47,070 nt of DNA, taken from a virus. Every line of letters begins with the position of its first letter. The first letter of the stretch is position 1. The notes below the pieces were generated by a model that was given only the letters and a program-made list of their open reading frames with translations, did no database searches and was not told where the DNA came from. The stretch covers positions 1 to 47,070 of the IMG/VR virus record IMGVR_UViG_3300027909_000011, one strand, 5' to 3'. The translations under genes and the position numbers were made by a program. Of this stretch, positions 7,677 through 39,517 are shown one piece after another.

Positions 7677-7692
7677 ACCTCTATCCTAGCAC

Positions 7693-9207: not shown

Positions 9208-9839
9208 TACATATCATCCAATAACACTGTGATGGTCGGATACGTTTCCCGCTCTACAAATTCTTCCCTGGACTTCAAGATGTCTAATCCATCATTGAAT
9301 TGAGATTGCTTCTGATTTGAGGCATCCCAATCCTCATCCGTCTCGTATGCCTGCTGTAGCACATACTCAACAACTCGATTATGGTATTCCTCAGAAAATG
9401 GGATAGTATCAGATAATGAATCAATAGCAGCGGGACGTTGGATATAGAGAATCTTAATCCCATTAGTAATACTCGTATCTGGTTTAGGATATAGCGTAAA
9501 TTCAGTACCCCAACGAGTCCACATATAAGGAGTACCAGTCTGAATTTCCTCAGGATCGTTAGCATTTACATAGGTGTCATATTCAGTACGCTTCATAAAA
9601 GCAATTTTTAGATTATCATAGTAGATAGTCTGCATTGCAAGCATATCAACAGGAAAGGGATAGGTATTGTCCCCAGCCACTGCATTTATAAGAGCCGATG
9701 CTTGAAGAAGACTATTCTTGACGGCAATTTCGCGTACGCCATCGTTGATCCAACGCATGATGTCGTCTTGAGTAATTTGAACCGATGCCTCGTCGCCAAA
9801 TTGACGAAGCACGCGAGTTACAACATCTTGGACATTCAT
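9207..9839 (-). CDS. Head-tail adaptor (tail tubular A / gp11-like position)
   Basis: 210-aa ORF sharing an ATGA overlap with the nozzle-like gene. The call rests on size and position. The C-terminal IPFSEEYHNRVVEYVLQQAY resembles adaptor families. Confidence 0.4.
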   Translation of the reverse strand: MNVQDVVTRVLRQFGDEASVQITQDDIMRWINDGVREIAVKNSLLQASALINAVAGDNTYPFPVDMLAMQTIYYDNLKIAFMKRTEYDTYVNANDPEEIQTGTPYMWTRWGTEFTLYPKPDTSITNGIKILYIQRPAAIDSLSDTIPFSEEYHNRVVEYVLQQAYETDEDWDASNQKQSQFNDGLDILKSREEFVERETYPTITVLLDDM

Positions 9840-10267
9840 TTCGGAATAATCTTCCCATTGTGTCGGAACCTATGCAGAGGCGATGAGGCAACAGTTTTAA
9901 TGAAGTCCTTCCTGAATTCAGCAGCATCTTCTAATTCCTTGCGGCGTACTGCTGCTAAAGCCCGCTCCTCGGCTTCGAGATTATCTAGAACCTCATTCTT
10001 TGTTGTATCCGCAGCATAGATTTTAGCAAGAACTCGATGGTCTAATTCTCCCTGCTTAATAAAGAACATAATATAAGGGGGATTGTTGACTGGATTATGG
10101 CGGACAGCATAGGGAGCCTCATTCTTATTCTCTGTACGCTTTTCCGGAGGAATCCATACAAGTTCAAGTTCAGGGTTGTATTCATTAATAAGTTCAGCGA
10201 TACGGGTATGCTTCTCATCTACCCAATATCCTTGCTCAGTCGGTGTCAGCACTATAGTCCATTCCAA
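9836..10267 (-). CDS. Hypothetical protein
   Basis: 143-aa ORF overlapping both neighbours by a few nt, in the same-strand operon context. Confidence 0.55.
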   Translation of the reverse strand: MEWTIVLTPTEQGYWVDEKHTRIAELINEYNPELELVWIPPEKRTENKNEAPYAVRHNPVNNPPYIMFFIKQGELDHRVLAKIYAADTTKNEVLDNLEAEERALAAVRRKELEDAAEFRKDFIKTVASSPLHRFRHNGKIIPK

Positions 10268-12255
10268 TATACAAACTCGCGGTCACGTAATGAACCCGCA
10301 GGTACTAATTGTACATCATAAAACGCCCATTCCAGGTCTGCTAATGAACGTCCCGATAATCCTGTCTGAGCCTGCCAGTAGACTCGTTGATGATCACTAA
10401 TACTAAAGGAACTAGCAGGAGCCAGACCACTCAACCCTGCATAGTAACTACGCATGAGGTCTGAGATTGTTCCTTGTTGTCCAGTTAGAATCTGTAACTT
10501 GGCGAGTTGCAGATCAGCAATACTCATTATACCTCCCGGCTGCACGCCACCCAAAACCACGTTTTCTGCGACCATACTCAAGAATGCATTATCAATGAAG
10601 ATATTATGAACTTGAGTAAGGTTAACATTGTCCGCAGTCATGGCTAGAACAGCATTAGCAATGATTAGATCGAGTTCCTGAGACAATGTTAAATTATCAG
10701 CAGTTACAGGAATATCAGCATTTTGAATAACTAAGATATGTTCCTGAGTAACATTTAAATTATCTGCTATCATAGCAATATCAGCATTTGAAATTGCTAA
10801 ATTAGCCTCAGTATTTAAAACAACATTCTCAGCAGATACACCTAAAGATGCATCTTGAATAACTAACTGGTGAACTTGAGTAAGGACAACATTTTCAGCA
10901 GAAACACCCAGAGAAGCATCGGCTACAGCCAATTGATGCTCTTGGGTTAGAACAACATTTTCTGCTGATACGCCTAAGGAAGCGTCTGCCGGTGCTAATG
11001 TAGGGGTGGTTACACCAAGGATTTCGATAGCATGACATCTAATAGCAGCGCCGCCAGCACCCGTAGTACCATAATTCCTAGTACCAGCAGCCTGTCCTAG
11101 CCAATAATGAGAGTTTTCTGTATAGTTAGCATCAGCAGAGTTTTCTACAGTATTTGCTCCACCAGGGGTTGGAGTTCCAACCGTTCCAGCATCAAAGTCA
11201 TAAGAAGCAAATCCTACGAAACTATTAGCATCTGCTGCTATAGAGACGACTTGAGTACTAGATGAAGTATAAGAAGTCCCAATATTACCAGTACCACCAG
11301 TACTGGCACCAGGTACTTGTATTGCCCAGGCGTGCCAAGTACCAGGAGTTCCACCGGACCTAGTAAGTGTAATAGTTAATGTGTGACTTCCTGCGCCCGT
11401 AATTGGTACTTTATAAATACCTAACCAGTCATCATTTGTTCCACTAAGGTCTTCTGTTTCATTTACAACAGTACCGATAGACCCTGAGGAGGTAATGACA
11501 ACATCTGTGATATCATTAGAAGAACCGAACTGGTCGCCACCAGCAAACACCCAAACAGTATCTCCATTGGCTAATCCGGTAAGAGCAATAGTCTTAGGAT
11601 TGGCTGTACTTCTAGCAGATTCGACTAGTTGCTTGACATTTGGTCCGGCTTTAGGACAAACAATCTCAGCAAAAGCTAATTGGGCTGCACCTTGAGAACC
11701 ATTTGGACCATTAACCCAGAATTCTCCTCGACCTCCGGAGGCCATTGAGCCAGTACCACCCTGACCAGCGGCATCATCGATCCATAGAGTAATTCTAAGA
11801 CGGTCACCATCAGATAAGGTAGTATCAGTTACATTTGCAGCGGAAACAGAAATCGTATCAGCAGAGCCACCAGCAGTGGTGCCCATTTCAGCGGCACCAT
11901 GATTAACGGTTTCATCTACAATTGTTGATTGAACTGTACCATCACCAGAAGTTCTTTCAATTCTAATAGTGGGAGCAACATTGTTGGCTGTAGCATTCTC
12001 ACGATCCCATAATGAACAAGTAATAGCACCAGCAATAGTCACTCCCCATAACTCAGGAGTGTAGAACGATACTGCCGTTCCATCTGTTCCAGCGGCACCA
12101 TCCGTCATTTGCAATGGAGCAGTTGGGCCAGTAACACTGTTTTTATTGAGATGGGTTGCAGAAGCGCCAGGTGTAAAGTCCGCTTTCCACTTTGTACCTG
12201 AGCCTGCTGTTACACCCGAATCTGCGGCAGCAGAGGTAAGATAGATATTCGACAT
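10252..12255 (-). CDS. Tail fibre / spike-like protein with C-terminal 22-aa tandem repeats
   Basis: 667-aa ORF rich in G/T/S/A. Residues about 423-570 are 6.7 tandem copies of a 22-aa unit (ADASLGVSAENVVLTQEHQLAV...). Confidence 0.6.
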   Translation of the reverse strand: MSNIYLTSAAADSGVTAGSGTKWKADFTPGASATHLNKNSVTGPTAPLQMTDGAAGTDGTAVSFYTPELWGVTIAGAITCSLWDRENATANNVAPTIRIERTSGDGTVQSTIVDETVNHGAAEMGTTAGGSADTISVSAANVTDTTLSDGDRLRITLWIDDAAGQGGTGSMASGGRGEFWVNGPNGSQGAAQLAFAEIVCPKAGPNVKQLVESARSTANPKTIALTGLANGDTVWVFAGGDQFGSSNDITDVVITSSGSIGTVVNETEDLSGTNDDWLGIYKVPITGAGSHTLTITLTRSGGTPGTWHAWAIQVPGASTGGTGNIGTSYTSSSTQVVSIAADANSFVGFASYDFDAGTVGTPTPGGANTVENSADANYTENSHYWLGQAAGTRNYGTTGAGGAAIRCHAIEILGVTTPTLAPADASLGVSAENVVLTQEHQLAVADASLGVSAENVVLTQVHQLVIQDASLGVSAENVVLNTEANLAISNADIAMIADNLNVTQEHILVIQNADIPVTADNLTLSQELDLIIANAVLAMTADNVNLTQVHNIFIDNAFLSMVAENVVLGGVQPGGIMSIADLQLAKLQILTGQQGTISDLMRSYYAGLSGLAPASSFSISDHQRVYWQAQTGLSGRSLADLEWAFYDVQLVPAGSLRDREFVYWNGL
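10546..10989 (-). repeat. Tandem repeat, 6.7 x 66 bp (22 aa) inside the fibre-like gene
   Basis: The first three units are nearly identical at DNA level, and later units diverge: ADASLGVSAENVVLTQEHQLAV / ADASLGVSAENVVLTQVHQLVI / QDASLGVSAENVVLNTEANLAI / SNADIAMIADNLNVTQEHILVI / QNADIPVTADNLTLSQELDLII / ANAVLAMTADNVNLTQVHNIFI / DNAFLSMVAENVVLGG. Confidence 0.9.
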
Positions 12256-12264
12256 ACCTACCCC

Positions 12265-12639
12265 TTATGTTGGATCGCCAGTCTCAATCTTCCACGCTGG
12301 GAAGTTAACAGTATTGGCAGCGGTTAGTGCCTGAGAAGTACAAGTGGTAACGAATCTAAGACTAGAATCAGCAGTTCTAATCAAGGCAATATGAGTAGCA
12401 GTACCAGAAGTATCAACTGTGACTCCATTCTTTGCAGCCATAGTAACTTTTCGACCACTGGTAGTCCCATCTGCTTTAGTATAATCAGTATCAGGAGTCA
12501 TGGCCGCATCGGCTAGAGCAAAGGTAGCATTGGCCTCAGTAAAAGTAGTTGGTTGAGCAGAGCAGGCAACCTGCTTATCGCACTGGTCAATTACATCAGC
12601 CGGTGCATCAAGAACAGCATCAGAGGCTGACTTAGCCAT
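12265..12639 (-). CDS. Hypothetical virion-module protein
   Basis: 124-aa ORF, T/A-rich, lying between the capsid and the fibre-like gene. Confidence 0.55.
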   Translation of the reverse strand: MAKSASDAVLDAPADVIDQCDKQVACSAQPTTFTEANATFALADAAMTPDTDYTKADGTTSGRKVTMAAKNGVTVDTSGTATHIALIRTADSSLRFVTTCTSQALTAANTVNFPAWKIETGDPT

Positions 12640-12856
12640 GACCAGGGCTCTCCGCTTCGTTCTTTAAAGTACTATTGTGGATATCTAATGTAACCTCACT
12701 AACCTGAGGCTTAGAAATGATTTCCTCATCATTAACTGGATCGGCCCAACCTACAGCACAGAAATAATATCCAAGGTGCTCCTGGACATCAACCTCGACA
12801 TCTTTTTCAAACTTATCCCTCTCATGGAGGAAAGTTTGATTAGGCTTAATACGCAT
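12632..12856 (-). CDS. Hypothetical protein (start revised to the internal ATG)
   Basis: The track ORF begins at a TTG inside the hairpin loop. ATG at 12856 is preceded by GGAGAA with a 4-nt spacer, giving MRIKPNQTF... (74 aa). Confidence 0.5.
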   Translation of the reverse strand: MRIKPNQTFLHERDKFEKDVEVDVQEHLGYYFCAVGWADPVNDEEIISKPQVSEVTLDIHNSTLKNEAESPGHG

Positions 12857-12872
12857 TTGATTCTCCAAATAC

Positions 12873-12911
12873 AATAGGGCTACAGGGCCACTCAAACCCT
12901 GTAGCCCTATT
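12873..12911 (-). terminator. 15-bp-stem hairpin downstream of the capsid gene (terminator/attenuator or processing site)
   Basis: AATAGGGCTACAGGG-ccactcaaa-CCCTGTAGCCCTATT. On the coding strand it is followed by GTATTTGG. The stem is built from an inverted pair of the GGCTACAGGG motif. Confidence 0.6.
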
Positions 12912-12927
12912 ATGAGGGGCAGATCGT

Positions 12928-14121
12928 TTAGCCTTCAATTAAGTCGTCAAGGAGACCATGAGAGTTACGACGGTGCGTACCAATCTCCGCGTACATAAAC
13001 ATCCGAGCCTCGTAGGCATCGAAGCCAATAACACGTTGCAGGTAAGAACCGTCTTCATCCATCCAACCCCAATCGTCTTCACGATAGAGCTTGATTTCCT
13101 TCTCATTAACAAACTTCATCTGGTTAAACGGCATATCCACGTCAATAACAACAGGAATATCACCATTATCGGTGGTGAAAGCAAGCCCCTTGAACCCGCC
13201 TTCAAATTCCTGAGTATTGACGAACCGACGATCAGTCTTCAACAGATTGAAGTAGGCACGCCGGACGCCGAGGTTAGAGAAAATAACGGTGGGAGCAGAA
13301 CCATTAACTCGAATGTCATCGGCAACCTTGATCATAAGGGCCTCAGTTAAAGCGCGGGGCGTACCACCGTTATTGTTAATAACGGATTTCCATACCGGCT
13401 CAACAGTCGGGTCAATGTTGTAAAGAGTACCTGTGTCCTTAATGATTGCTCCAAGACCGGTAACCTCTCGGTTAGTGTTACCAGTACGAACCACAACATC
13501 CGTGGCCACAATTGAAGCAGAACCATCAGCACCGTTATAAGTGACAACCTTGGTAGAAGTGTTAATAGCAGTAATTTGCCGGTTAGAGATACGAGTCGTA
13601 ACAAGAGTGATGTCCATGACATCAATCATCATTCCGACTTCGAGGTATTGAACAGTATTAACGGTAATGGTGTTAACACCATCAGCGGTTACCGAAGCAC
13701 GAACACCAGTACCAAATCCATAGAACTGGAAGTTAAGATCTTTAGCGAGGTCCCGCTTAAGTCCCTTAATTTCCTCATCAAGAGCCGAAGCAAAAGCCTG
13801 GTAGTTCTTATCAGCCAACTTCATAGTCTGGCCGGTAAGGTTAATACCACCGTACAGGTACTTTAGACCCACACGGGCGGCAGCAGTCTTTTGCTGACCC
13901 GGAGTCGGAAGGGCTTCGTTTTCATTTCGAGCACCGATACCGTGGTTACGACCGGTCCGAATTGGGAAAGTCACATAACGACCACCAACATCGTTAGTAA
14001 CACCTTCGGAAGTCTTCTCGATACGACGCATTCCGACGACGTCATAGTTTAGCTGGTCTTGCAGATCCTTTTCGTAAATTTCCTTAAGGATTGCGGAGAC
14101 CGTTGAAAGGGTGGCACCCAT
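12928..14121 (-). CDS. Major capsid protein
   Basis: 397-aa ORF immediately after the acidic scaffold-like ORF and the portal, with a strong hairpin downstream. The call rests on synteny and size (HK97-fold class expected). Confidence 0.75.
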   Translation of the reverse strand: MGATLSTVSAILKEIYEKDLQDQLNYDVVGMRRIEKTSEGVTNDVGGRYVTFPIRTGRNHGIGARNENEALPTPGQQKTAAARVGLKYLYGGINLTGQTMKLADKNYQAFASALDEEIKGLKRDLAKDLNFQFYGFGTGVRASVTADGVNTITVNTVQYLEVGMMIDVMDITLVTTRISNRQITAINTSTKVVTYNGADGSASIVATDVVVRTGNTNREVTGLGAIIKDTGTLYNIDPTVEPVWKSVINNNGGTPRALTEALMIKVADDIRVNGSAPTVIFSNLGVRRAYFNLLKTDRRFVNTQEFEGGFKGLAFTTDNGDIPVVIDVDMPFNQMKFVNEKEIKLYREDDWGWMDEDGSYLQRVIGFDAYEARMFMYAEIGTHRRNSHGLLDDLIEG

Positions 14122-14127
14122 CTGGTC

Positions 14128-14967
14128 TTATCCTCCTGGAGCATTAAGACGCGCAAGCGTTTCTGCAATTAATTTCCTGCGATCTTGGCCGGAGAGACCT
14201 GAAACCTGTACTTGCTGGGATGGAGTTCCACCGCCCCCGCCCATAATAACTGGCGCTGTTGAACCGGGGCTACGATGGTTTTGCACTACGTTATTGACGA
14301 AACTCTGATAAGCCTTAACAGCATCATCAATATTCTCGTCGTAATAGTGCATCCGCTGAACTACATAAGCCTCATCGAAATCACCATGCTGCTTTTTAGC
14401 GGCTGCAATTTCTGCATCCAACTCAGCCTCTGCCTTTTGCTGGGCTAATTCCTCTTGCTGAGCAACTGCATATTGTGCTACAGCCCGAGTCATATCGGCA
14501 TATTGCTGGAATCTTGGATCGGCTTCTAGATCAAACGGCTGTTGTCCATCACCAGGGTCGTATTGTTCACCGTCTCCCTGTGGGTCTTCCTGGCCCTGCT
14601 CCAATTCCAACTGGTAATAGTCCATTACATTTTGCACAAATGATGCGGGGTCCTGTTCCAGAGCCTGGAACACTAACATCGCATCATTAATTTGCTTCGG
14701 ATCAATCTTCTGATCCAAGAATGGCTTGTAACCAGCGTATTCAGAGTGTACCTTTTGAATACCTTGAGTATAGTTTTTATCCCACTGCTGCAACTCTGGG
14801 ATAATGAGCTTCTGCAAGTTTTGATCCGGAATCTTACCTAAAAGACCCTGCCATGCAGGATTTAACTTAGGCTCCTCGCCACCATCACCTTGTTGTTGAT
14901 GATCTTGAGGCTGGCCATTGCTAATTCCACCATCTTGGACAGGAGGATCAAAATTTGGCTGTGTCAT
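14128..14967 (-). CDS. Scaffolding protein
   Basis: 279-aa ORF, acidic and Q/D/E/P-rich, predicted helical, lying between the portal and capsid genes. Confidence 0.6.
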   Translation of the reverse strand: MTQPNFDPPVQDGGISNGQPQDHQQQGDGGEEPKLNPAWQGLLGKIPDQNLQKLIIPELQQWDKNYTQGIQKVHSEYAGYKPFLDQKIDPKQINDAMLVFQALEQDPASFVQNVMDYYQLELEQGQEDPQGDGEQYDPGDGQQPFDLEADPRFQQYADMTRAVAQYAVAQQEELAQQKAEAELDAEIAAAKKQHGDFDEAYVVQRMHYYDENIDDAVKAYQSFVNNVVQNHRSPGSTAPVIMGGGGGTPSQQVQVSGLSGQDRRKLIAETLARLNAPGG

Positions 14968-15035
14968 TTCTACTCTTCCTGAGGCTGTGCGGGTGCCCTG
15001 GCCTCTATTACTAGAATACGTGCTTAGTCAATACC

Positions 15036-17213
15036 CTACTCTGACTGTGACGTATCTTCTGGTATTGGATTAGGCCCCGGTGCGGCTCCTGGCTGAGTTG
15101 CTTGAGCCATTTCAGAACCAGGTGGCGCTTGCATTGGGGTATTTACATCAGTTGGAGGAGGCTGATTTCTTTGTTGCTCAGCAATACCAATCATCATTTC
15201 GGCTGTTGGCATTCCACCAATATGCGGGGCAGCAATAGATTCCATATGCTTCTGCACATGGACCTCAAACAGCAATTGCTTTGCAGGATCAAGTTGTTCA
15301 TAAGCCTGAGACTTACGGAACTTATTATGGATGTCAATATGAATAGCGTGATTATCAAATGTGTTGACTGGAATAACAGGTTCAGGCAACAGGGGCTTTC
15401 CAAATTCATCAACCTGAGGCATTGGTTCACCAGTCATTGGATCAGTAGGAAGTTCGAACATCTGCTCAATAAGGGCGTCATCCACATTCTGCATCTTAAG
15501 ATTTTCACGTCGAGCCTGAGCCTGATCAACCTGCACATTCTCGTACAATTTAACAATACCACCCATATCAAGGACTTGCATACCATCCTCAGGAGTGATA
15601 AAGCCCATCTTCATCCAGTCCGTAATTAATGCTTGCTTAGCGGCCTTAGAAGTTGGGAGAGCAGAACCAGCCTCAACACGAATATCTGTATTACCCTTAA
15701 GATCAGAACCTGCAAACATCGCAGCATCCCACGAACCATCAACACCAGTAATCTTGACAATTCTAGGAACATCCCAATACTGACCAATTAGTCCAAGGGA
15801 TTGACGGGCAACCTTTTCAATTCCAGCCTCAATTGAATCAACTTCGTGCGACAGCATAGAATCATCTTGCTCTTGGAGATAACTAATGGCTGTAGCCGCA
15901 GTAACACCAGGAGGAACTGATCCGCGAGTAACTTCATGCTGCCCTGAAAGATCATCAAAATCAGCAGTTAATTGCTGAACTTCATTAAGAACGTAGTTGG
16001 GGAGGGGAACTAAAGGAATAGGTTGCGGAGGTTGGAATCCCATCTTATAAGGAATCCATTGTCCCGGCTCGGTAGTAACCTTTTGGGGATCAGTTGAACC
16101 CATCTGGTAAATCATCTGAGGCTTAGCCATACGATTCTTGGCTTCAACAATTTGTGAACGAGTCCTATTGTATTCCCTTTGGATAGGGATAAGGTCCTCA
16201 ATTACAGATGTAGCATAGTATTTACCAGCAGGAATATGATCAAACTTAGAAATACAATATTCCCCATGCTCATAAGGGAACACAGGATAAAATTGAATAA
16301 TTTGCTCACCCGTCATGGTGACTACGCCACCCTCAGGGAAGTCCTTTAGACCACCAGGCTTAATCCACAACTCATGTACCAGGACTGAGTCATTATCCTG
16401 AGATGATCCCCCCACCAAATTAAGGAAAGCATCATTTAAAATCTCGTTCGCGCCCTTAGTATTTGGCTGGATAACTTGCCCATCCAGAGACTTCGGATAG
16501 TTTAACATCAGCCAGTCGGGAGTATGGGTCGCTGAGTGAATAATATAGGGCTGATCCTCAATTTGCGTTTCTCTTAGATCAGGAACATTAACATGAAAAG
16601 GAGTCAATGGTTTATAACAAATATCGCCTTCATAAGCAGCATCAGGTGCTGGTGTTGATACTTTGTAGTTATCCCAATACGTTTTCACATATCCGGTACC
16701 ACAAACTAACATCCACCATACAGCTTCTTTGAATACAGTATGAAGATTCTTGTCGTAATATAAAGATTCCCAGATTTGTTCACCAGCATTAGCGGCGAAC
16801 ATATCTTCATCTTCTGACGAAGCAGGAACAATACTAGCACTAGGCTTCTGAGACGTTAACTTAGCAAGTTCTCGGCGAATAATAGGACGAACCCTATTAA
16901 CTACCATACGAACACGCCAAGGAGGGGCAGGAGGAACGATTAAACGATTCCCAATGCCCCTAATATTTTGTGGTACAACATTTTGCTTCCCGAAATAGAA
17001 AGCCATATTCATATACCACTGCCGCTCGAATTGTGACCGAGCAGTCTTCATTTTATTATATAGCGTGTTAACAAGACTAGCCAGTTCTTCTGCCTGGCTA
17101 GTCGTTAACTTAACGCTTTCTAACGGATTAGTCGAAGGAAGGACCAAAGAGCCTGAGGGCTGCTTCGCCGTCTGGGTCAAAAGCTTCTTCCCCGATTCCG
17201 ATACTAGACTCAT
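15036..17213 (-). CDS. Portal protein
   Basis: 725-aa ORF upstream of scaffold and capsid. The N-terminal region QFERQWYMNMAFYFGKQNV resembles podoviral portal N-termini. The C-terminus is acidic and Pro-rich. Confidence 0.75.
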   Translation of the reverse strand: MSLVSESGKKLLTQTAKQPSGSLVLPSTNPLESVKLTTSQAEELASLVNTLYNKMKTARSQFERQWYMNMAFYFGKQNVVPQNIRGIGNRLIVPPAPPWRVRMVVNRVRPIIRRELAKLTSQKPSASIVPASSEDEDMFAANAGEQIWESLYYDKNLHTVFKEAVWWMLVCGTGYVKTYWDNYKVSTPAPDAAYEGDICYKPLTPFHVNVPDLRETQIEDQPYIIHSATHTPDWLMLNYPKSLDGQVIQPNTKGANEILNDAFLNLVGGSSQDNDSVLVHELWIKPGGLKDFPEGGVVTMTGEQIIQFYPVFPYEHGEYCISKFDHIPAGKYYATSVIEDLIPIQREYNRTRSQIVEAKNRMAKPQMIYQMGSTDPQKVTTEPGQWIPYKMGFQPPQPIPLVPLPNYVLNEVQQLTADFDDLSGQHEVTRGSVPPGVTAATAISYLQEQDDSMLSHEVDSIEAGIEKVARQSLGLIGQYWDVPRIVKITGVDGSWDAAMFAGSDLKGNTDIRVEAGSALPTSKAAKQALITDWMKMGFITPEDGMQVLDMGGIVKLYENVQVDQAQARRENLKMQNVDDALIEQMFELPTDPMTGEPMPQVDEFGKPLLPEPVIPVNTFDNHAIHIDIHNKFRKSQAYEQLDPAKQLLFEVHVQKHMESIAAPHIGGMPTAEMMIGIAEQQRNQPPPTDVNTPMQAPPGSEMAQATQPGAAPGPNPIPEDTSQSE

Positions 17214-17263
17214 GTGCCTGTGCCCATCTTTGTGCTTCGTCTAGGTCGGACATACTCGGGATT

Positions 17264-17791
17264 TCAGATTGAAAGCCCGTCTGATTTGCGTTTTCTAGTA
17301 TTTGATACGCTAGAGGGTCCTTGCTCGCTAGGAGCAACGACTGCTTGATCAATAAGTTCCTCAATAGATGGTTCGTCTGGATTATCGGGGCTTGACTCTC
17401 CCGATGCATCCGAAATAGAAGTAGTAGCGACATTGATAATATCGTCAGAAGAACTAATACCAAGCAGGCCAGTAGCGCGGAGTTTGGCGATAGCATCATC
17501 TAATGCTGCTTCCTTAACTCGGAAGTTTAAAATATGCTCTCTGAGTTGATCATTCTCGCGCTCAAGAGCCTCAGATTGTTCAGGAGTTAAACAACCCAGG
17601 GTATTTGCAGCCTGAGTAAAGCAGAAGGTGCAGAAATAAACCACACCATAGAACTCAATATCCCAATCAAGATCGACATATTGACGATCATCACTTCTAG
17701 CAGCACCACAAACTACACAAACACCCGGCAGCATACGCGGAGCCTCTAGAACGCGAATTCTAGAGGTCTCCGGGTTTCTAACAAGAGGCAT
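17264..17791 (-). CDS. Zinc-ribbon plus coiled-coil protein, unknown function
   Basis: 175-aa ORF with CVVCG...(26 aa)...CTFC, followed by a helical segment and an acidic, Ser-rich tail. It lies between terL and the portal gene. Confidence 0.55.
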   Translation of the reverse strand: MPLVRNPETSRIRVLEAPRMLPGVCVVCGAARSDDRQYVDLDWDIEFYGVVYFCTFCFTQAANTLGCLTPEQSEALERENDQLREHILNFRVKEAALDDAIAKLRATGLLGISSSDDIINVATTSISDASGESSPDNPDEPSIEELIDQAVVAPSEQGPSSVSNTRKRKSDGLSI

Positions 17792-17793
17792 CT

Positions 17794-18339
17794 CTACTTA
17801 TTCACATACTGAATAGTAGTGCGAGCCTTACCGCGCTCGGTATCGGAAGTATATCCAGAAGTATCCTCTACTCCACCATGCTCCGAAAGAGACTTCGCAG
17901 CAGCAAGAGCATTAACCTTCTGCATATCATTATCCCATGCGGCCTGCTTAGGATCAGGCTTGGTGTGCTCAGAATTAGTCGTATCCACCATTACAGTCTG
18001 GACCGGCTCATTCTTAATCTCTACCTCATCAGAGAAATGAGACTTATCAACATCAGTCTCACGGAGGTATTGCTTAGGAACGAGTAAGGTCCCCGCTGTA
18101 GCCGGAGGATTATCTAAATCCGGCTCACGATCCTCAACTTCTGCACGCCACTCTTCGGCAGCCTTCATTTGCAAATCATCAGCATAAGGTCCACCCGTAC
18201 GCGGAACCTTTCCATGACTCGCATTATAAAGGTCTAATTCCTCTTCGTGCTTTTCCTCGTCAGTACCAGACTCTTCCTCAGTACCAGTACCCTCGACAGG
18301 CTCATCATCCAGCACGGTCTCGTCAGGACTCTCAGACAT
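17794..18339 (-). CDS. Highly acidic protein, unknown function
   Basis: 181-aa ORF. The first about 80 residues are very D/E-rich (MSESPDETVLDDEPVEGTGTEEESGTDEEKHEEE...). ATG is preceded by GAAAGGTG and by two GGCTACAGGG motif copies. Confidence 0.6.
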   Translation of the reverse strand: MSESPDETVLDDEPVEGTGTEEESGTDEEKHEEELDLYNASHGKVPRTGGPYADDLQMKAAEEWRAEVEDREPDLDNPPATAGTLLVPKQYLRETDVDKSHFSDEVEIKNEPVQTVMVDTTNSEHTKPDPKQAAWDNDMQKVNALAAAKSLSEHGGVEDTSGYTSDTERGKARTTIQYVNK

Positions 18340-18392
18340 TGTTCACCTTTCGGCTACAGGGGGCTTAACTACTAGGCTACAGGGCGAGTCAA

Positions 18393-19946
18393 CTACCATT
18401 CTCCACCCATATACTCATCAGGATTTGTGATAAACCATCCATTGGGATCAACTTTGGTATTTGCCTTGAGAAGTCTTTTATCAATTACTGGATGACGATT
18501 AGGACTAAGCAAATCAACCCCGACCGCCGGTAGAAGATGGGTCTCGACCTTTACCTCTGGGATACTCAAAGGAGTCAGGTCAGGCATAACAGTAAAGAAG
18601 TATCGGAGGTCGTCCATAGCGTGATCATCTTTTTTATGCGGAACATCGTATGGATTGTTATCCCGTTGTGATTTCTGATTAGACCAGGTCTTCCATCGAT
18701 ACTTTGGTGCCTCACGGATTAAGTTATCACAGTTGGCGGTCACATGCCATCGAGGAGGACGATCCTCACGGTAATCCATATAGGCGTTTACCTTGTTAAT
18801 ACCGGTGACTACATCATTAACCCCAGCAGCTAATTCGATTCCATGCATCATGTATTCGGCTTGAACTGAGGTACCAGTAACGGGATTACGCTGTGCTAAT
18901 GCAGGATCGCATACTCGCATAACAGGTACGCGGCCACCAAAGGACTGTTCAATAAGCTTAACTTGAGTTGCATGCTCAGCAATAACCATTTCTCGTTCGT
19001 AGTGCTCCATGAAGGTAATAACTTCTCCATCAGGAGACACGAGATGCCAATGCCAAGAGGTAGGATTATTAAAACCATGATCAACAGACGCATAAATATC
19101 CCAGCCTTGGGGCAATTCAGTTAATGGTGGAATTACATGAACCCCAGTATTAAATTTTTTGTAGATAACTCCACCCCGCCGAATGAACTGCCCACTGATA
19201 CGAGCAACTCGATCATCCTCGGGTAAGGAGTTAACGAAATCTTGAATTTCGGATTTCCCAATGTAGGGATTGTCCCAAATAGATACTTCGATGGTTTGGA
19301 TATCACTATCAACGGAACTGATTGAGGGTAGGTAAATATCATCATACATCCATTGCATTCCGAGAACGGGAGTTAATGTCATCCACCAAGAACCACCCGT
19401 ATCGACCAGTCGGGCGATACATTCGATATAGATGTCAAGAGGGGGTTCCTCGTCAAAATGTACAAAATGCCGAGATGTCCCTGCAAATTTTTGAACGTCT
19501 TGTTCATAGGACATAAATTCAACAAACGAGCCGTTTTCGAAGTAAAGGGTTCTTGGCTGGACGTCGTACGCAGAATACCACGAACCTCCCCGCAAGTAGC
19601 TTGGTGGACACCAACGCTGGAATTCTGGAATGATGATTTTGTCAATACCATCGTTAAAGTCAACACCTACGACACGTCCCCTCACAGGAGGTTCGGGCGT
19701 TTTAATATGCTTCTGAGTTCCTTGTAACCAATCGATATCTTCGACAACTCCACCGGTTGTCTTTCCACTACGGTTACCACCAATATAGAGACGCTTCTTT
19801 TTAGGAGAAGTGTGGAATTTTATCTGCTTCTCGTGCGGTACATAACCTAAAATATTAGGGCGGGATGCTTGTATCTGCAACTTCTCTTGAAGTTGCAGAA
19901 TTAAATCATTTGCTGTGAGTTCTGGTTCTCTACTTTTACGAGGCAT
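18393..19946 (-). CDS. terL: Terminase large subunit
   Basis: 517-aa ORF with Walker A GGNRSGKT, Walker B-like HFVHFDEEP, and a C-terminal nuclease-like region (ASVDHGFNNPTSWHW...HAMDDLRY). Confidence 0.9.
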   Translation of the reverse strand: MPRKSREPELTANDLILQLQEKLQIQASRPNILGYVPHEKQIKFHTSPKKKRLYIGGNRSGKTTGGVVEDIDWLQGTQKHIKTPEPPVRGRVVGVDFNDGIDKIIIPEFQRWCPPSYLRGGSWYSAYDVQPRTLYFENGSFVEFMSYEQDVQKFAGTSRHFVHFDEEPPLDIYIECIARLVDTGGSWWMTLTPVLGMQWMYDDIYLPSISSVDSDIQTIEVSIWDNPYIGKSEIQDFVNSLPEDDRVARISGQFIRRGGVIYKKFNTGVHVIPPLTELPQGWDIYASVDHGFNNPTSWHWHLVSPDGEVITFMEHYEREMVIAEHATQVKLIEQSFGGRVPVMRVCDPALAQRNPVTGTSVQAEYMMHGIELAAGVNDVVTGINKVNAYMDYREDRPPRWHVTANCDNLIREAPKYRWKTWSNQKSQRDNNPYDVPHKKDDHAMDDLRYFFTVMPDLTPLSIPEVKVETHLLPAVGVDLLSPNRHPVIDKRLLKANTKVDPNGWFITNPDEYMGGEW

Positions 19947-20284
19947 TACGTTGTACTATCTGTAGCACCTAATTGGACTAAAGCAGCTACAACACTGGCT
20001 AATGCAGCATTACCTGCCTTGGAACCAGTAATTGTAATTCCATCTAGAGCACCCTTATAAGGTAATCCAATCCTATGGTTATGATCCCCAGCGGCCGCCT
20101 GATCATGCTTGGAACCAAGCGAATGATGCTGCGCTGTTTGTGAACTATCAAGATCACTTCGCTCATGGAATGCTTTTACAGTCTGAGCATCAACTGAACC
20201 GGCATCTGATCTGTCAAATTCACCTTTGTACTGATTCCCCCCGACCTGATACTTAGGTAAATCCCTTGGATCATTCATCGTCAT
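19946..20284 (-). CDS. Fibre-associated / minor tail-like protein (HHSLG...GDHNH motif)
   Basis: 112-aa ORF. SDLDSSQTAQHHSLGSKHDQAAAGDHNH matches a motif I recall from actinophage minor tail/fibre proteins (recalled from memory, not searched). Confidence 0.45.
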   Translation of the reverse strand: MTMNDPRDLPKYQVGGNQYKGEFDRSDAGSVDAQTVKAFHERSDLDSSQTAQHHSLGSKHDQAAAGDHNHRIGLPYKGALDGITITGSKAGNAALASVVAALVQLGATDSTT

Positions 20285-20829
20285 GTGAGACTACCTGCCC
20301 AAATAACAGACAACGCCATACCCTCCGCAAATGTATTACCATCTGCGTTAAGCGCAGCACCTGAGTTCTGGAACAAAGCGCCAGTAATAACATCATTAGT
20401 AACAAAAGCGAAGAAATCAGAAATCTTAACTCCGTTAGCACCACCAGTGAAACTAAGGTCTACAATGGATAATAAACTAGTTCCATTCTTACGAATATCT
20501 CCACGACGTACACCTGTAGCATTGGCTGCGAATGAGGCATTTAAACTAACATAATAGATTCCATCTTTTCGAATAGTAATAGCATCGTTAGTAAGGTTTA
20601 CCATTGCCCCCTCAGGACGGGCAGCATAGGTATCAAATCCAGTAGTATTAAAAGCTGCAAGAGTTAAAGCGTTATTAGGAACTGATTGGGCTACTGAAGC
20701 CGTCATCTTTGCTGCGGGAATAAAATTAGCATCAATCTTATCCGAATTTGCATTGATTAAAGCAACTGAAACAAGCTCGGCCCCATCTGGTTTGGATAGG
20801 ATTAACCGAGGCGTCGTAGTGACAGTCAT
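20281..20829 (-). CDS. Fibre / receptor-binding-like protein
   Basis: 182-aa ORF. The N-terminus TTPRLILSKPDGAELVSVALINANSDKIDANF resembles conserved fibre N-termini. The remainder is predicted beta-rich. Confidence 0.4.
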   Translation of the reverse strand: MTVTTTPRLILSKPDGAELVSVALINANSDKIDANFIPAAKMTASVAQSVPNNALTLAAFNTTGFDTYAARPEGAMVNLTNDAITIRKDGIYYVSLNASFAANATGVRRGDIRKNGTSLLSIVDLSFTGGANGVKISDFFAFVTNDVITGALFQNSGAALNADGNTFAEGMALSVIWAGSLT

Positions 20830-22003: not shown

Positions 22004-22261
22004 AATGCACTCCTTCCTCTCATATCTGATGGTACACGAAACGATATTCTTGTCAAGGAGAAAAGGATAACGAGTGCTACACATCGGGACTACTCGATTC
22101 GGCTACAGGGGGTGTTGTTATTTGCAGTCTGGGATGCAGCGAAGAAAATAGGTGTTACACCAGGAGAGTATATGAAGTCTGCTATAGAAAAGGATTTGGT
22201 ACGTGGCGGTTGGCTTCCTAAATGGTGGTATACAAGGAAATTTGGGCGTGTGCAGGGATAA
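21974..22261 (+). CDS. Candidate ribbon-helix-helix (Arc/CopG-like) protein
   Basis: 95-aa ORF with AGGAGG 7 nt upstream. It occupies otherwise unannotated DNA from 22004 to 22261. YSIRLQGVLLFAVWDAAKKIGVTPGEYMKSAIEKDLVRGG fits a strand-helix-helix layout like Arc. It is uncertain because it overlaps the leftward promoter. Confidence 0.35.
   Translation: MNPNHILYSHNALLPLISDGTRNDILVKEKRITSATHRDYSIRLQGVLLFAVWDAAKKIGVTPGEYMKSAIEKDLVRGGWLPKWWYTRKFGRVQG
22029..22056 (-). promoter_or_regulatory. Leftward promoter TTGACA-N16-TACCAT
   Basis: The minus strand reads TCCTTGACAagaatatcgtttcgtgTACCATcag. It lies about 20 nt upstream of the GGAAGGAG ribosome-binding site and GTG 22003. Confidence 0.55.
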
Positions 22262-22443
22262 AGGGGTGCTACACTATCAATTGTGGGGTTATCTAGTAAT
22301 AGATAGGGGACTACGTCCAGTGGAAAAGGCGCCAAAATTCCCGACAACATGATAATCGATCATACGTTCGATTAAGATGGCAAAGAAATAACGACGCAAT
22401 TAAATGCGCCGTTAATGGTTAATACCTAATGCATCTGCGCCAA

Positions 22444-22461
22444 TCCAATAGTGCCATTCCC
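22444..22461. repeat. Left arm of the inverted repeat bracketing the flavoprotein gene
   Basis: TCCAATAGTGCCATTCCC matches the reverse complement of 23893..23910 at 16 of 18 positions, with a 13-nt perfect core CAATAGTGCCATT. It ends 8 nt beyond the stop codon. Confidence 0.8.
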
Positions 22462-22468
22462 TCACCCT

Positions 22469-23845
22469 TTATGAAAGCTTGGTTGCCAGTACTGCGGTGC
22501 GAGTCGCTAACCTAAACATTGCGACTCTGTTATTGCCAATGTCACTAACACCATTGGCGCTTTCCTCAGAATCGAAATCGATTTCGGCACGCGGACCAAT
22601 ACGGAATCTCTGTGCTTGTCCGAAATCCTCTTCATTGCGCACTGCAATAACACGCGACCGCCTGGCATCGTCGGCATAAATGCGCTCATTGTAGAACCAA
22701 TCCATGCCGGGAATGGTAATGCGATCATTGCCAGTGGCGATTACCACTAGGTCGTATTGACGGCCATTGATCAATACACCACCACTAGGCAATGCAATGG
22801 GAGAAACAACTTGGTTGAATACATTCAACTTCTGATTTCCCATTGCGTCCGGCCGGAGATAGCGACCAATTGCACGATAGCGACCACGGTTCGCCCGACA
22901 GTAATCCTCGTAATCACTCTCTACATTGTTGGCGAACCAATCAAGACGATTCACCGTGTCCAATTCTGCCGCGCTCATGAATGATTGCGGCGCCAATCCG
23001 AGAAATGACTCAACAGCACATTTCCCGGAATCTCCTCCACCAATTACGGCGACATTGCGGAGACCACGCAATGGCCACATTCCCGTCATACGGTTCATGA
23101 ATTGCGGGAATGTAAGAATGGATTCACCATTTGCCCGATCACCATTCTTTGGATCACCGAGACCGGTTGAATCAATTACCCTCTTGGCAAGAATAACGCG
23201 CTCATCATTCGTACCATAACTGCTATAGGTAACTGCGAATGTGTCGTCCCCATCATCCACACTAATTACCTTTGCACTCGGAAATACCCGGGTGTATCCG
23301 GATTGTGCGAATGTCAGCCGGATGATGAATGCCATATCGGCATTCGTTTGGTACTCCGCATTCGAGAGTGCAGACGCTTGAATGGGAGCGCCGGGAAGGT
23401 AATTCAACTGCGCCTCGTTATCACGCGAAATACCCGCAAATCCCCGGCGGTTGCGTGAATTGAGATTGAACACTCCCGGATATGTACCATCCTGACCGGG
23501 AATGGCAAACACCCCACCAATAGTCGGAGCGCTTTCGAGAATTAGCGGCATCTGCTTTCCGAGTAATACCCGGGTTGCCGCATAAACAGCTGCATGGAAA
23601 CCGCTACCAATGATCAATTCATCGGTATTACCCGGAATGTTAACAAGGGAACGGTTAGTGCGAAATGCCCTATCCATTGCCTTGTTTGCCACATCGCGAG
23701 CGCCGGAGTCCAGTGCAATTCCCGTCAACTGCGCCTGCAATTCTGACGGGAATTCATTTACGCGCTCCATAATCATCGATAATCCCGGAGACCGAGTCTC
23801 CCGGACCTTTTCGATAATGCGCGCAACAAGATTACTTGGCTGCAT
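22469..23845 (-). CDS. FAD/NAD(P)-binding flavoprotein (class B monooxygenase-like or pyridine-nucleotide-disulfide-oxidoreductase fold)
   Basis: 458-aa ORF with two dinucleotide-binding motifs (ELIIGSGFHAAVYAA and VAVIGGGDSGKCAVE) and a C-terminal DLVVIATGND motif. This pattern resembles the Lys/Orn N-monooxygenase family. The first about 70 residues are an extension of unknown function. Confidence 0.7.
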   Translation of the reverse strand: MQPSNLVARIIEKVRETRSPGLSMIMERVNEFPSELQAQLTGIALDSGARDVANKAMDRAFRTNRSLVNIPGNTDELIIGSGFHAAVYAATRVLLGKQMPLILESAPTIGGVFAIPGQDGTYPGVFNLNSRNRRGFAGISRDNEAQLNYLPGAPIQASALSNAEYQTNADMAFIIRLTFAQSGYTRVFPSAKVISVDDGDDTFAVTYSSYGTNDERVILAKRVIDSTGLGDPKNGDRANGESILTFPQFMNRMTGMWPLRGLRNVAVIGGGDSGKCAVESFLGLAPQSFMSAAELDTVNRLDWFANNVESDYEDYCRANRGRYRAIGRYLRPDAMGNQKLNVFNQVVSPIALPSGGVLINGRQYDLVVIATGNDRITIPGMDWFYNERIYADDARRSRVIAVRNEEDFGQAQRFRIGPRAEIDFDSEESANGVSDIGNNRVAMFRLATRTAVLATKLS

Positions 23846-23847
23846 TT

Positions 23848-23889
23848 CCCTTACCTTTCATTTCGAATTTAGGCATGACTAGGTAAGGG
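23848..23889 (-). promoter_or_regulatory. 5' leader hairpin sequestering the ribosome-binding site of the flavoprotein gene
   Basis: The mRNA reads CCCTTACCT-(24 nt)-AGGTAAGGG-AA-AUG. The 9-bp perfect stem pairs the only purine-rich Shine-Dalgarno-like element. Confidence 0.45.
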
Positions 23890-23892
23890 TTT

Positions 23893-23910
23893 GGAAATGG
23901 CACTATTGAA
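23893..23910. repeat. Right arm of the inverted repeat bracketing the flavoprotein gene
   Basis: GGAAATGGCACTATTGAA is the reverse-complement partner of 22444..22461. It lies 48 nt upstream of the ATG. Confidence 0.8.
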
Positions 23911-24150
23911 TTGACAAATTGCGTGCGAGCGCGGCAATCCCCGCTAGGTCGTCACCGCTTCGCTGGCTTGGAACATGTTCCAAGCCTAATCGTTTCCATC
24001 GTTGTAGACCAAATTTGTCCCACTATTTGGGCAGCTGTCTCATTTGATTTTTGACTACCCAAAGGTAGACTTGATTCATTACAGAAATACGGACAGTGTC
24101 GGCCGGCACTACTCTCCGTAATGGAGAGTAGTTGGCGCATGCCGCCAGGT

Positions 24151-24345: not shown

Positions 24346-24371
24346 GTGTAGGGGTATCTATACCCCTACAC
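24346..24371. promoter_or_regulatory. 26-bp palindrome (operator- or origin-like)
   Basis: GTGTAGGGGTAT-ct-ATACCCCTACAC has 12-bp perfect arms. There is no T-run on either side. Confidence 0.6.
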
Positions 24372-24395: not shown

Positions 24396-24624
24396 TTTGA
24401 CCTCGTTTGACACCACAAAACCGCAGGTCAGGGGCTTGTCGAACACTTTGTCATACATTGTCAGTCAACGCAGTTGACAACCACTACCCTGCATTGCGTG
24501 CATTGCACTACACACAGTAGCATTGACAACTAAACTGACTACACAGAGTAGGTTTGACATGCTCTCCGAACTGGCTTGACCTGGATTGACAGGCTTGTCA
24601 CGAGAGGCAGCATGACCCTTGTCA
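24396..24624 (+). repeat. Array of 12 same-orientation TTGAC/TTGTC boxes (iteron- or -35-like)
   Basis: Boxes start at 24397, 24407, 24436, 24448, 24458, 24474, 24523, 24554, 24576, 24586, 24595 and 24619. Several neighbours are 9-12 bp apart. Confidence 0.7.
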
Positions 24625-24648
24625 CAGGACAGAACTCACCAGTAACTT
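24619..24648 (+). promoter_or_regulatory. Early promoter candidate TTGTCA-N18-TAACTT
   Basis: Read from sequence. The -10 box fits the actinobacterial TANNNT pattern. Confidence 0.45.
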
Positions 24649-24743: not shown

Positions 24744-25580
24744 ATGACCAACCACCCCGAACACACAGAAAAGGATCAGGTCATGACCGAGCAGACCACG
24801 GCTCCTGTAGCCGAAAACCCTGAGGCCACTACCCCGGCAATTGCTGAGGCAGACCTCCCCGATTTGGCTAAGGCCCTGATTATGGCCGCGCGTCCCGTTA
24901 GGGATAATGCGGTCAAGGTCTCAGCTAAGATTTCCGCTGCTGGCAATATCGGCGAGACACTTACCGAGGCAGTCGAAAAGTCCGAGGACCCCGAAATCGT
25001 GGGTTGGCGGACCAAGATCGAAAAGGCAAATGCGCTTATCCTTGACCTGACCAATAAGGCGCAGGAAAAGGTTCGGCCCACTCTCGACATTCCCTCGGAT
25101 GAGGATTTGGAGAAGCTGGATACCGAGTATCGCGAACTTGCCCAGCAAATCAACGCGTACAATAACGTATTCGGCAACGAAGTTTCGCGGTCGGATAACG
25201 TTCCGGATGACGCCAAGGTTTCAATTTACACTTACATTGGCGATTTGCCCGGTCGTAGGCGTGGTGCTCGTCCGGGGCAGGGATCAGGTACAGCCCGGCC
25301 GCGAGTTAAGAGTGTTGAATTCACTCATGACCTCGCGGGCGAAAAGGATTGGCAGAAGGTCGGCACGGACGACTCTTCTACCTTTACTCACCTTGCCGCA
25401 GTAGTTAAGCGAGAGTCCAAGCAAGAGGTTACCGCTGCTGATTTCCACGAGCCGTGGCTTGCTGCATATCCTACGGCTGGCGGCGACTGGCAGAAACTGC
25501 CGGAGGTCACTACCTTTAGTTACTCGACTACCGATTCTGAGGGTAAGACTTTCCAGTACATGGTTCGGGTTACCAAGTAA
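24744..25580 (+). CDS. Early protein of unknown function (acidic N-terminus), apparently monocistronic
   Basis: 278-aa ORF. An alternative start at ATG 24783 is preceded by AAAGGA. The gene is bracketed by promoter candidates upstream and by two hairpins downstream, one of them a canonical terminator. Confidence 0.7.
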   Translation: MTNHPEHTEKDQVMTEQTTAPVAENPEATTPAIAEADLPDLAKALIMAARPVRDNAVKVSAKISAAGNIGETLTEAVEKSEDPEIVGWRTKIEKANALILDLTNKAQEKVRPTLDIPSDEDLEKLDTEYRELAQQINAYNNVFGNEVSRSDNVPDDAKVSIYTYIGDLPGRRRGARPGQGSGTARPRVKSVEFTHDLAGEKDWQKVGTDDSSTFTHLAAVVKRESKQEVTAADFHEPWLAAYPTAGGDWQKLPEVTTFSYSTTDSEGKTFQYMVRVTK

Positions 25581-33653: not shown

Positions 33654-33698
33654 GGCTACAGGACCACCCATAAGGGTAAAAGGGTTGCCCCTGTAGCC
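33654..33698 (+). promoter_or_regulatory. Hairpin formed by a GGCTACAGG / CCTGTAGCC pair after the metalloprotease gene
   Basis: GGCTACAGG-(27 nt)-CCTGTAGCC, starting 8 nt after the stop codon. A third motif copy lies at 33755-33765, 24 nt before ATG 33789. Confidence 0.45.
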
Positions 33699-33788
33699 TC
33701 GTCACCTTCTACCAGTGACCTTCCAAGTCGGGAAACTGGTAAAAGCTCTCACTTGGCTACAGGGGCAACAAGCATTTTAGGGATAAAA

Positions 33789-35400: not shown

Positions 35401-35925
35401 ATGGCATGTCCAAGTTGTGGGGCAGGGTTACATTGGGAATGTAGATCAGACCCATGTTGTTGTTCGAGTGACCCTGCCCCTGTAGCCGAGGAAGAAATTA
35501 ATGATAGAAAGCATCAGCGAAGATTCACAAGGGACGCTAACCTTAAAGATCAGCAGAGCACAGGTAGAAAAAGAGCTGCCAGGGATTATCCCCTTGATCG
35601 AACAGCACCTTGCGAATGGCAAGGGCTTCGATTTGCAGGTGGGGGACAAAACCCAATTACTGGTTGTACCCAAGGATTACAGCAAGCGAGACATCACGGT
35701 CCTGATAAAAATACCCTCAATAACAGTGAGGGGAATGTCCATCGAATCTGCCATAAGTGTCACAACCGTTGGCACACCCTTAACGATGATGGATATTTGG
35801 AACGAATGGGTGAAGCCGGTTATGGAGCGACACATGATGCCACCACCAAAGCCGGAATGGATGAATTAATAGAGTCTGAAATGTATTGGCAAAGAAACAA
35901 AACGATTAAAGTACACGGAGATTGA
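35401..35925 (+). CDS. HNH endonuclease
   Basis: 174-aa ORF with an N-terminal Cys cluster and the HNH core ARHHGPDKNTLNNSEGNVHRICHKCHNRWH. Confidence 0.75.
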   Translation: MACPSCGAGLHWECRSDPCCCSSDPAPVAEEEINDRKHQRRFTRDANLKDQQSTGRKRAARDYPLDRTAPCEWQGLRFAGGGQNPITGCTQGLQQARHHGPDKNTLNNSEGNVHRICHKCHNRWHTLNDDGYLERMGEAGYGATHDATTKAGMDELIESEMYWQRNKTIKVHGD

Positions 35926-35927
35926 TA

Positions 35928-36311
35928 ATGATGACACTTTATGACCATGCTCGAACAGAATTGGAATTACTAGGTGAAGAACCGGAAGTTATCGACTGGT
36001 TTATCCGTGTTATTGATGAATTTGCGTCATTTGGCCATTCTGGGGGATCAGCCTCAATCTGCATCCCGATCCTTAACAAACTCCTGCGTTTTGAAAACCT
36101 CACCCCTCTTACAGATGATCCGAAAGAATGGATCGATGTAGCCGAATACTCAGGATTTAAATGGTGGCAGAATGCCCGTAATGGGGAGGCATTCTCGAAA
36201 GATGGAGGAAAGACATACACATTGCTTAGTGAGCGTAAATTTAAGTCATGGAAAAATCTTTGGTTAGCCAGAACACCAGTCCATAAATCTGAGAAGAAAC
36301 AAAATGCCTAG
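35928..36311 (+). CDS. Hypothetical protein
   Basis: ATG 35928 is preceded by GGAG with a 7-nt spacer. The track start at TTG 35922 overlaps the HNH stop. Confidence 0.55.
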   Translation: MMTLYDHARTELELLGEEPEVIDWFIRVIDEFASFGHSGGSASICIPILNKLLRFENLTPLTDDPKEWIDVAEYSGFKWWQNARNGEAFSKDGGKTYTLLSERKFKSWKNLWLARTPVHKSEKKQNA

Positions 36312-39495: not shown

Positions 39496-39517
39496 CGTCC
39501 ATCAATAAAGGAGAGAA

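Follow-up and report, generated by a model that had tools for sequence, protein, structure and literature searches.

The 47,070-nt stretch of viral DNA analysed here, which comprises positions 1 to 47,070 of the IMG/VR record IMGVR_UViG_3300027909_000011 (hereafter, the window), carries on its minus strand a gene for a 458-residue flavoenzyme that is enclosed, together with its leader, by an inverted repeat (Table 1). The window belongs to an SU10-like lytic podovirus from soil: the capsid, portal, and adaptor proteins match SU10 models, a family A DNA polymerase and an SNF2 helicase are encoded, the terminase is 46% identical to Arthrobacter phage terminases, and a domain scan detected no lysogeny genes among the 50 window proteins. 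The terminase and structural or late genes occupy the minus strand below position 22350 and the early genes occupy the plus strand from 24744. As the original prediction had stated, the flavoenzyme gene lies alone between the two groups; it is the first gene on the late-side strand and adjoins an 830-nt non-coding control region. Neither the gene nor 24 kb of the window had a match, as protein or as DNA, in the phage isolate database. We give about even chances to the explanation that an accessory gene was acquired and now lies between two copies of the phage lineage's junction motif, with its expression under the control of the upstream copy.

The repeat had been noticed as a pair of 18-mers, TCCAATAGTGCCATTCCC (22445–22462) and GGAAATGGCACTATTGAA (23893–23910), matching at 16 of 18 positions with a 13-nt perfect core. 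Both were present as described; their distances from the stop codon and the ATG, given as 8 and 48 nt, were counted as 6 and 47 nt. The full repeat is longer and consists of two 29-nt arms that are complementary at 25 of 29 positions. This pair is unique in the window and is the best inverted repeat at separations of 200–3000 nt in the whole 47 kb, and the best pairs in 24 block shuffles of the window reached only 21–22 of 29. Ten other assemblies of the same phage from separate JGI, ENA, and Logan sample accessions were 99.9% identical over 3.6 kb, and both arms were unchanged in all of them. Separately, each arm read outward from the gene (23885–23905 on the plus strand and 22449–22469 on the minus strand) resembles a ribosome-binding site followed by a start codon, AAGGGTnnGGnA ATG GCA CTA TTG. 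The resulting mini-open reading frames have 5 and 12 codons and encode MALLN and MALLDWRRCIRY, each ending at a stop codon. The repeated unit may be derived from the 5′ end of a gene.

With a length typical of invertase sites and transposon ends, a 29-nt inverted repeat that frames exactly one gene and its leader could represent the terminal repeats of a mobile or invertible segment, namely a transposon-like cassette or an invertase switch carrying the flavoenzyme gene. We regard this as very improbable. No integrase, invertase, recombinase, or transposase domain was found among the 50 window proteins, including the repeat-framed segment, and no target-site duplication was found outside the arms. 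The segment had one orientation in all ten assemblies, homologues of the gene elsewhere lack these repeats, and the extended arm sequence has no other occurrence in IMG/VR. These results bring a self-contained mobile or invertible cassette close to refutation.

The gene itself is an addition relative to related phages. No flavoenzyme homologue was found in the 59 loci fetched by terminase similarity (31–63% identity), about two dozen of which reach at least 2 kb upstream of the late-side helix-turn-helix (HTH) or small-terminase genes. The early/late junction spans 2.4 kb in the window, whereas it is compact in the two relatives in which it is covered: the interval between the early gene p278 and the HTH gene is 457 nt in the phage contig L029, and in L021 a divergent gene begins about 140 nt from the orf86 homologue. 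The early protein p278 was also used as a query to reach the junction from its opposite side in viral contigs, and no relatives were found. The composition of the gene is mildly atypical for the genome, with a GC content of 50.2% versus 45.2 ± 2.6% in the other genes and the largest codon-usage distance among the genes of at least 300 codons, which fits a possible origin in a higher-GC donor followed by partial amelioration. These observations support the accessory character of the gene that the original prediction had proposed.

Morons, according to Hendrix and colleagues, are reportedly lone accessory genes that sit between conserved genes and carry their own expression signals. The flavoenzyme gene resembles them in being present in one phage and missing at the same junction in its relatives, in its mildly atypical composition, and in the terminator-like hairpin that follows it (suggestive only; the count in the scan was not above that in shuffles). 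Classical morons, however, are known from temperate phages, where expression takes place from the prophage, whereas the present phage shows no lysogeny genes, no promoter belonging to the gene was identified, and a flanking inverted repeat is not a moron feature. In the favoured explanation, the gene would be a horizontally acquired single-gene unit of the moron type, inserted at a divergent early/late junction.

The repeat core occurs in a phage that does not have the gene. On the gene strand, the upstream-arm core reads TTGTCAATTCAATAGTG, and two copies of it are found in L029, where the motif reads CACACTATTGAATTG(A/T)CAA (also given as CACTATTGAATTG(A/T)CAA) at 1069–1087 and 2359–2377. The proteins of the window and of L029 are only 36–54% identical, and outside the motif their leaders show no evident similarity by eye; by our estimate, chance would not be expected to produce an exact match of 17 nt between the junction regions of the two phages. 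The distance from the motif to the ATG is 55 nt in the window and 57 nt before the p278 homologue in L029. The second L029 copy lies 1.3 kb away in direct orientation, and the L029 pair therefore brackets an early gene as direct repeats. The downstream arm of the window has the position and orientation of the L029 junction copy, beside the late-side operon and reading toward it. The original prediction suggested that the repeats might frame an inserted cassette, and named relatives with the gene but no repeats, or with the repeats but no gene, as grounds for abandoning that idea. Both were found: 17 homologue loci lack the repeats, and L029 has the repeat core without the gene. The repeats are therefore assigned to the junction signals of the lineage and not to the gene.

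These findings suggest how the arrangement may have arisen. The flanking repeat would consist of two inverted copies of a junction motif owned by the phage lineage. The downstream copy would occupy the ancestral position and orientation beside the late-side operon, and the upstream arm would be its inverted counterpart beyond the inserted gene, the duplication having most likely resulted from insertion of the gene, or from an inversion, by recombination at the motif. The upstream copy is the better conserved one, and because its distance from the ATG is nearly equal to that in L029, it most likely supplies or controls the expression of the flavoenzyme gene. If so, the arrangement illustrates how a gene acquired by the phage can come to lie between copies of a junction motif specific to its lineage. 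Comparable arrangements are the repeat-flanked regulatory cassettes at module boundaries, such as the PeSL promoter/stem-loop repeats of T4-type phages and the lambdoid boundary sequences. The present motif is like them in being a short lineage motif at the edges of accessory or early genes (direct in L029, inverted in the window), but it has no sequence relationship to them, its copies in the window are inverted, and it is seen in two genomes only, where recombination is deduced from the arrangement.

Several results weigh against this explanation. The motif is common to just one other phage contig; its 12 matches in IMG/VR are, apart from that contig, about the number estimated to occur by chance. 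The downstream arm matches the L029 motif less well (13 of 17) despite its ancestral position. The two arms agree with each other at 12 further positions that are missing from L029, and a simple operator or promoter copy leaves these unexplained. A scan of the gene strand found no sigma-70-like promoter for the flavoenzyme gene, and no consistent −10 hexamer follows the TTGACA of either arm; the role of the motif in expression is deduced from its position. Finally, the ten assemblies, being 99.9% identical, offer no population evidence on the origin of the arrangement.

The repeat could also be a neutral scar of an insertion or inversion, or a fortuitous match, with no present function. It is the single such pair in the genome, and no conservation is demonstrable beyond one phage species. 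We nevertheless consider this improbable, since the agreement at 25 of 29 positions exceeds that in every shuffle, half of the repeat is a motif kept in a phage with such diverged proteins, and the placement of the arms at the stop codon and the leader is precise.

Table 1. Positions of the flavoenzyme gene, its flanking repeat, and nearby elements in the window
Feature	Position	Strand	Remarks
458-residue FAD/NAD(P)H two-Rossmann flavoenzyme coding sequence	22469..23845	-	Open reading frame call and translation, family alignment, AlphaFold2, Foldseek
Upstream arm of inverted repeat	23885..23913	.	Ends 39 nt before ATG
Downstream arm of inverted repeat	22441..22469	.	Starts on last base of stop codon
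Lineage motif TTGTCAATTCAATAGTGCC (plus strand GGCACTATTGAATTGACAA)	23899..23917	-	Overlaps upstream arm; common to L029, which lacks the gene
Leader hairpin CCCUUACCU / AGGUAAGGG	23848..23889	-	9-bp; buries Shine-Dalgarno sequence; fold 23843-23892
Terminator-like hairpin and T-run	22379..22414	-	27 nt after downstream arm, ahead of next gene (22350); consensus scan and fold; suggestive only
Perfect 22-bp palindrome, halves GGCTTGGAACA and TGTTCCAAGCC	23965..23986	.	52 nt upstream of upstream arm; candidate operator, role inferred

The original prediction had also proposed that the repeats could pair the 5′ and 3′ ends of the transcript, and this was borne out by folding: a 26-bp 5′–3′ helix was kept in both the minimum-energy and the centroid folds of the 1.5-kb transcript, into which the mRNA could close. 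A second explanation, which we hold to be possible though clearly less probable than an acquired gene framed by the lineage motif, is accordingly that selection acts on the repeat as RNA, with the two arms forming a helix of about 26 bp around the leader and the gene on one mRNA. Such a helix could be an RNase III site, could protect the mRNA ends, or could be the partner of a Shine-Dalgarno-sequestering hairpin in translational control. On the sense strand, two of the four arm mismatches, both of them transitions, become G·U, giving 27 of 29 pairs; these two positions carry little weight, since chance alone would give them with a probability of 1/4. One arm directly adjoins the stop codon, and between the other and the ATG 39 nt are left for the ribosome-binding region. 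The leader hairpin, whose 5′ half shares 5 nt with the end of the upstream arm, had an energy of −16.2 kcal/mol and a z-score of −5.0, none of 200 shuffles was as stable, and it also appeared in the full-length fold. A search of Rfam gave only a sub-threshold isrP match. Against selection on the RNA, a thermodynamic fold will show any 27-bp complement, and most of the upstream arm would be untranscribed if the conserved motif is a promoter. Moreover, the arms are invariant in the ten assemblies and offer no covariation, and gene-bracketing repeats at 23/26 or better were found in none of the 59 relatives of the phage.

A parallel was found in a 72-kb viral contig, IMGVR_UViG_3300036863_000086 (L077), which encodes a 43%-identical homologue of the flavoenzyme. 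A 59-nt repeat, with 49 of 59 positions matching, encloses the homologue in a geometry like that of the window, with one arm ending 34 nt before the ATG and the other beginning 17 nt after the stop codon. This is the single analogous case; none of the 17 other homologue loci had a flanking inverted repeat above shuffled controls. In L077, the bracketing extends further: between 5095 and 11835, at least 10 consecutive genes or segments each lie in their own unique inverted repeat (mostly 26–33 nt, up to 59 nt), the brackets are 83–96% complementary, and the arms of adjacent brackets abut directly. The mismatches that become G·U favour the coding strand, 15 versus 6 for the other strand (one-sided binomial p ~0.04). 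Judged from its sequence, the run looks like a string of gene-enclosing RNA stems, and it suggests that stems of this kind occur as a strategy of phages. Because ten neighbouring genes are bracketed likewise, the bracketing in L077 is not tied to the flavoenzyme gene. Gene-enclosing RNA stems are known from the RNase III stems around 16S and 23S rRNA and from the 5′–3′ fold-back of the hok mRNA. The window is like them in that sequences flanking one unit, at a separation of 1.4 kb, could pair into a helix of more than 20 bp, but the unit is a protein-coding phage mRNA with no covariation between the arms. Taken together, the window and L077 suggest a testable possibility, namely that long-range RNA stems are used by some phages to enclose single genes. 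No account of gene-bracketing phage repeats, or of the flavoenzyme family, was found in the literature searched.

The protein contains the two Rossmann motifs and the ATG motif attributed to it in the original prediction: GSGFHA at residues 80–85, GGGDSG at 269–274, and IATG at 369–372. In class B and N-hydroxylating flavin monooxygenases, the FAD motif takes the form GxGxxG/A with an acidic residue where the second strand ends, the NADPH motif is likewise GxGxxG/A (GxGxSA in N-hydroxylases), and an ATG motif is present. In an alignment of 48 family members, G80, G82, and E104 of the FAD motif were invariant and A85 nearly so; G110 and G111 of the GG motif were invariant or nearly so; G269, G271, and D272 of the NADPH motif were invariant and S273 nearly so; and within the ATG motif, which lies in YDLVVIATGN, G372 was invariant and D365 nearly invariant. 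The alignment also revealed a nearly invariant cysteine beside the NADPH motif (Cys276), a conserved extra N-terminal helical domain of 70 residues, and an invariant Arg-rich segment, FNLNSRNRRG...LNYLPGAPIQ, at residues 126–156. An AlphaFold2 model had a predicted local distance difference test score of 85 and a predicted template-modelling (TM) score of 0.87, with low confidence only at residues 130–162, which hold the Arg-rich segment.

Comparison of this model with solved structures using Foldseek gave as top matches DfoA, SidA, PvdA, KtzI, putrescine N-hydroxylase, bacterial FMOs, and the oxidase domain of a polyketide synthase, with E-values of about 1e-12 and TM scores of about 0.5; the probability was 1.0 for SidA, PvdA, DfoA, KtzI, and FMO. 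The bacillithiol disulfide reductase Bdr gave the best superposition when normalised to the target (target-normalised TM score 0.70, root-mean-square deviation 5.7 Å). Sequence searches were less informative. No Pfam model was reached at threshold, the best being Pyr_redox_2 (18.3 bits; cut-off 26.1) and FAD_oxidored (15.9 bits), and no PHROGs, NCBIfam, or PADLOC model, including those for known defence and anti-defence systems, was matched. A single-sequence search of the PDB returned no match, and the family profile reached an E-value of about 0.01 to the FMO 4a9w. None of the family members in set A1 reached any monooxygenase Pfam model, and one distant member scored 19.5 bits to Lys_Orn_oxgnase, below the cut-off of 21.3. 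The likeness to flavin monooxygenases that had been proposed from the sequence thus holds for the fold, which is nearest to the N-hydroxylating and class B enzymes, and not for membership in a named family. The model supports an FAD/NAD(P)H-dependent enzyme with a class B or N-hydroxylating monooxygenase-like fold, and the fold match is compatible with either monooxygenase or reductase chemistry.

The protein shares with the class B and N-hydroxylating monooxygenases (SidA, PvdA, DfoA, KtzI; PF13434 Lys_Orn_oxgnase) and bacterial FMOs the two Rossmann domains, a GxGxxA FAD motif followed by an acidic residue, the GG motif, a GxGxS(A/G) NADPH motif, and D-x3-I-ATG. It differs from them in its low identity (~12–16%) and lack of a Pfam match at threshold, in the helical N-terminal domain and the invariant Arg-rich segment, and in that its family is found on mobile elements and phages and not in siderophore or natural-product clusters. 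Bdr/YpdA and the thioredoxin-reductase-like FNRs (PDB 7a76, 8c16) have the same FAD/NADPH two-domain fold, to which the near-invariant Cys276 may be added as a point of likeness; the window protein is, however, only about 15% identical to Bdr/YpdA and 130 residues longer, and no relationship was detected at the sequence level.

A database search found 355 homologues of the flavoenzyme. Among 1.84 billion cluster representatives, the family profile matched 694 clusters at E ≤ 1e-3, a number that fell to 554 at 1e-10 and to 320 at 1e-30; because of these numbers at successive cut-offs, we regard the family as discrete in sequence, not merging into the very large monooxygenase families. No characterised member turned up in the searches made, and a family of about 700 clusters that has no Pfam, NCBIfam, PHROGs, or PADLOC model is a defined target for biochemistry. 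Several members are considerably longer than the window protein, including P0242 (1010 residues), P0174 (819), P0198 (810), and P0265 (747), which carry N- or C-terminal extensions of 200–560 residues. A Pfam scan of ten long members found no informative domain; the extensions, for which no Pfam model gave a match, might hold clues to a substrate or partner.

Nearly all of the named cellular homologues (44–49% identity) come from Micromonosporaceae, in which a genome often has several copies. Their same-strand neighbours include GGDEF proteins (26 loci), ArdC-like anti-restriction proteins (15), DUF4192 (15), DprA-like proteins (11), M23 peptidases (10), and Replic_Relax (7), a combination of genes that appears characteristic of an integrated conjugative-type element. 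The closest relatives (55–68% identity; the closest is P0002, at 68%, from a 1959-nt contig of JGI 3300041966) are encoded on small high-GC metagenomic contigs rich in short open reading frames, with ArdC/PolyVal or AAA_25 genes; an ArdC/PolyVal gene adjoins a 59%-identical relative. A metagenome scan for close relatives returned only homologues of 39–49% identity, and none of the relative searches found the gene and the arms together. Homologues at 33–45% identity were present on 12 IMG/VR viral contigs (45–135 kb, 51–72% GC). Because these contigs have no neighbour gene in common, the flavoenzyme gene appears to move alone between mobile elements.

Recurrent linkage to anti-restriction and DNA-entry genes, together with scattered single-gene presence in unrelated phages, was thus found as an association. 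From this genomic company, a role in establishment or counter-defence may be the most interesting possibility: its substrate could, for instance, be a small molecule or an immune signal of the host, which the enzyme would oxidise or N-hydroxylate as a counter-defence during phage infection or conjugative entry. It would then be a rare redox enzyme used for that purpose, common to conjugative elements and phages with GC contents of 46–72%. We consider it doubtful that the window presents both a new mobile-element flavoenzyme family acting in the establishment of incoming DNA and gene-enclosing repeats that package accessory genes as closed RNA loops, which would be a so far undescribed way of doing so. 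If none of these possibilities holds, the gene is an ordinary accessory gene.

Two further observations concern the homologue loci. In a Micromonospora aurantiaca contig (JBEYBB010000012.1, positions 5300–20600), two tandem copies of a module comprising DUF3846, DUF4192, GGDEF, small open reading frames, and the flavoenzyme lie within 15 kb. Their flavoenzymes have diverged as paralogues, each about 48% identical to the window protein, and two or three copies are present in several Micromonosporaceae genomes. On two high-GC contigs encoding 59%-identical homologues (L015, 750–790, and L011, 12–52), a common hairpin, ACAGCTATGCG...CGTTTAGTTGT, closely precedes the ATG. The apical stems of the two loci have different sequences, each of which is nonetheless complementary (GGGCCCGGAC/GTCCGGGCCC versus CGCACGG/CCGTGCG), and the hairpin could be a conserved leader or terminator structure.

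The control region beside the gene holds further sequence elements in addition to the palindrome in Table 1. A 12-bp perfect hairpin, GTGTAGGGGTAT/ATACCCCTACAC, lies at 24346–24371 and a 10-bp hairpin, ACTACTCTCC/GGAGAGTAGT, at 24108–24133. On the plus strand at 24397–24625, 12 TTGAC or TTGTC words occur in 230 nt of the non-coding region, often at a spacing of about 10 nt, and no consistent −10 element follows them; the array could represent iterons, an origin, or a regulator-binding array. The 9-mer CCTGTAGCC is present in 20 copies on both strands of the window, versus 0.33 expected from shuffles, for example at 12878–12906, 18352–18383, 22101–22109, 24804–24812, 33654–33698, 33755–33763, and 35479–35487. 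Several copies form inverted pairs in intergenic spaces, and the 9-mer may serve as a terminator stem, as a regulator site, or as a signal of another kind. At 35922–36311 on the plus strand, a 129-residue protein matches the Pfam model PF25185, ‘Type I Thoeris inhibitor Tad3’ (E 3e-36, 124 bits; cut-off 27), so that at least one recognisable anti-defence gene is present in the phage. Genes for tRNA-Leu(UAA) and tRNA-Gln(UUG) lie on the plus strand of the early/middle region, at 39413–39496 and 40157–40229, respectively.

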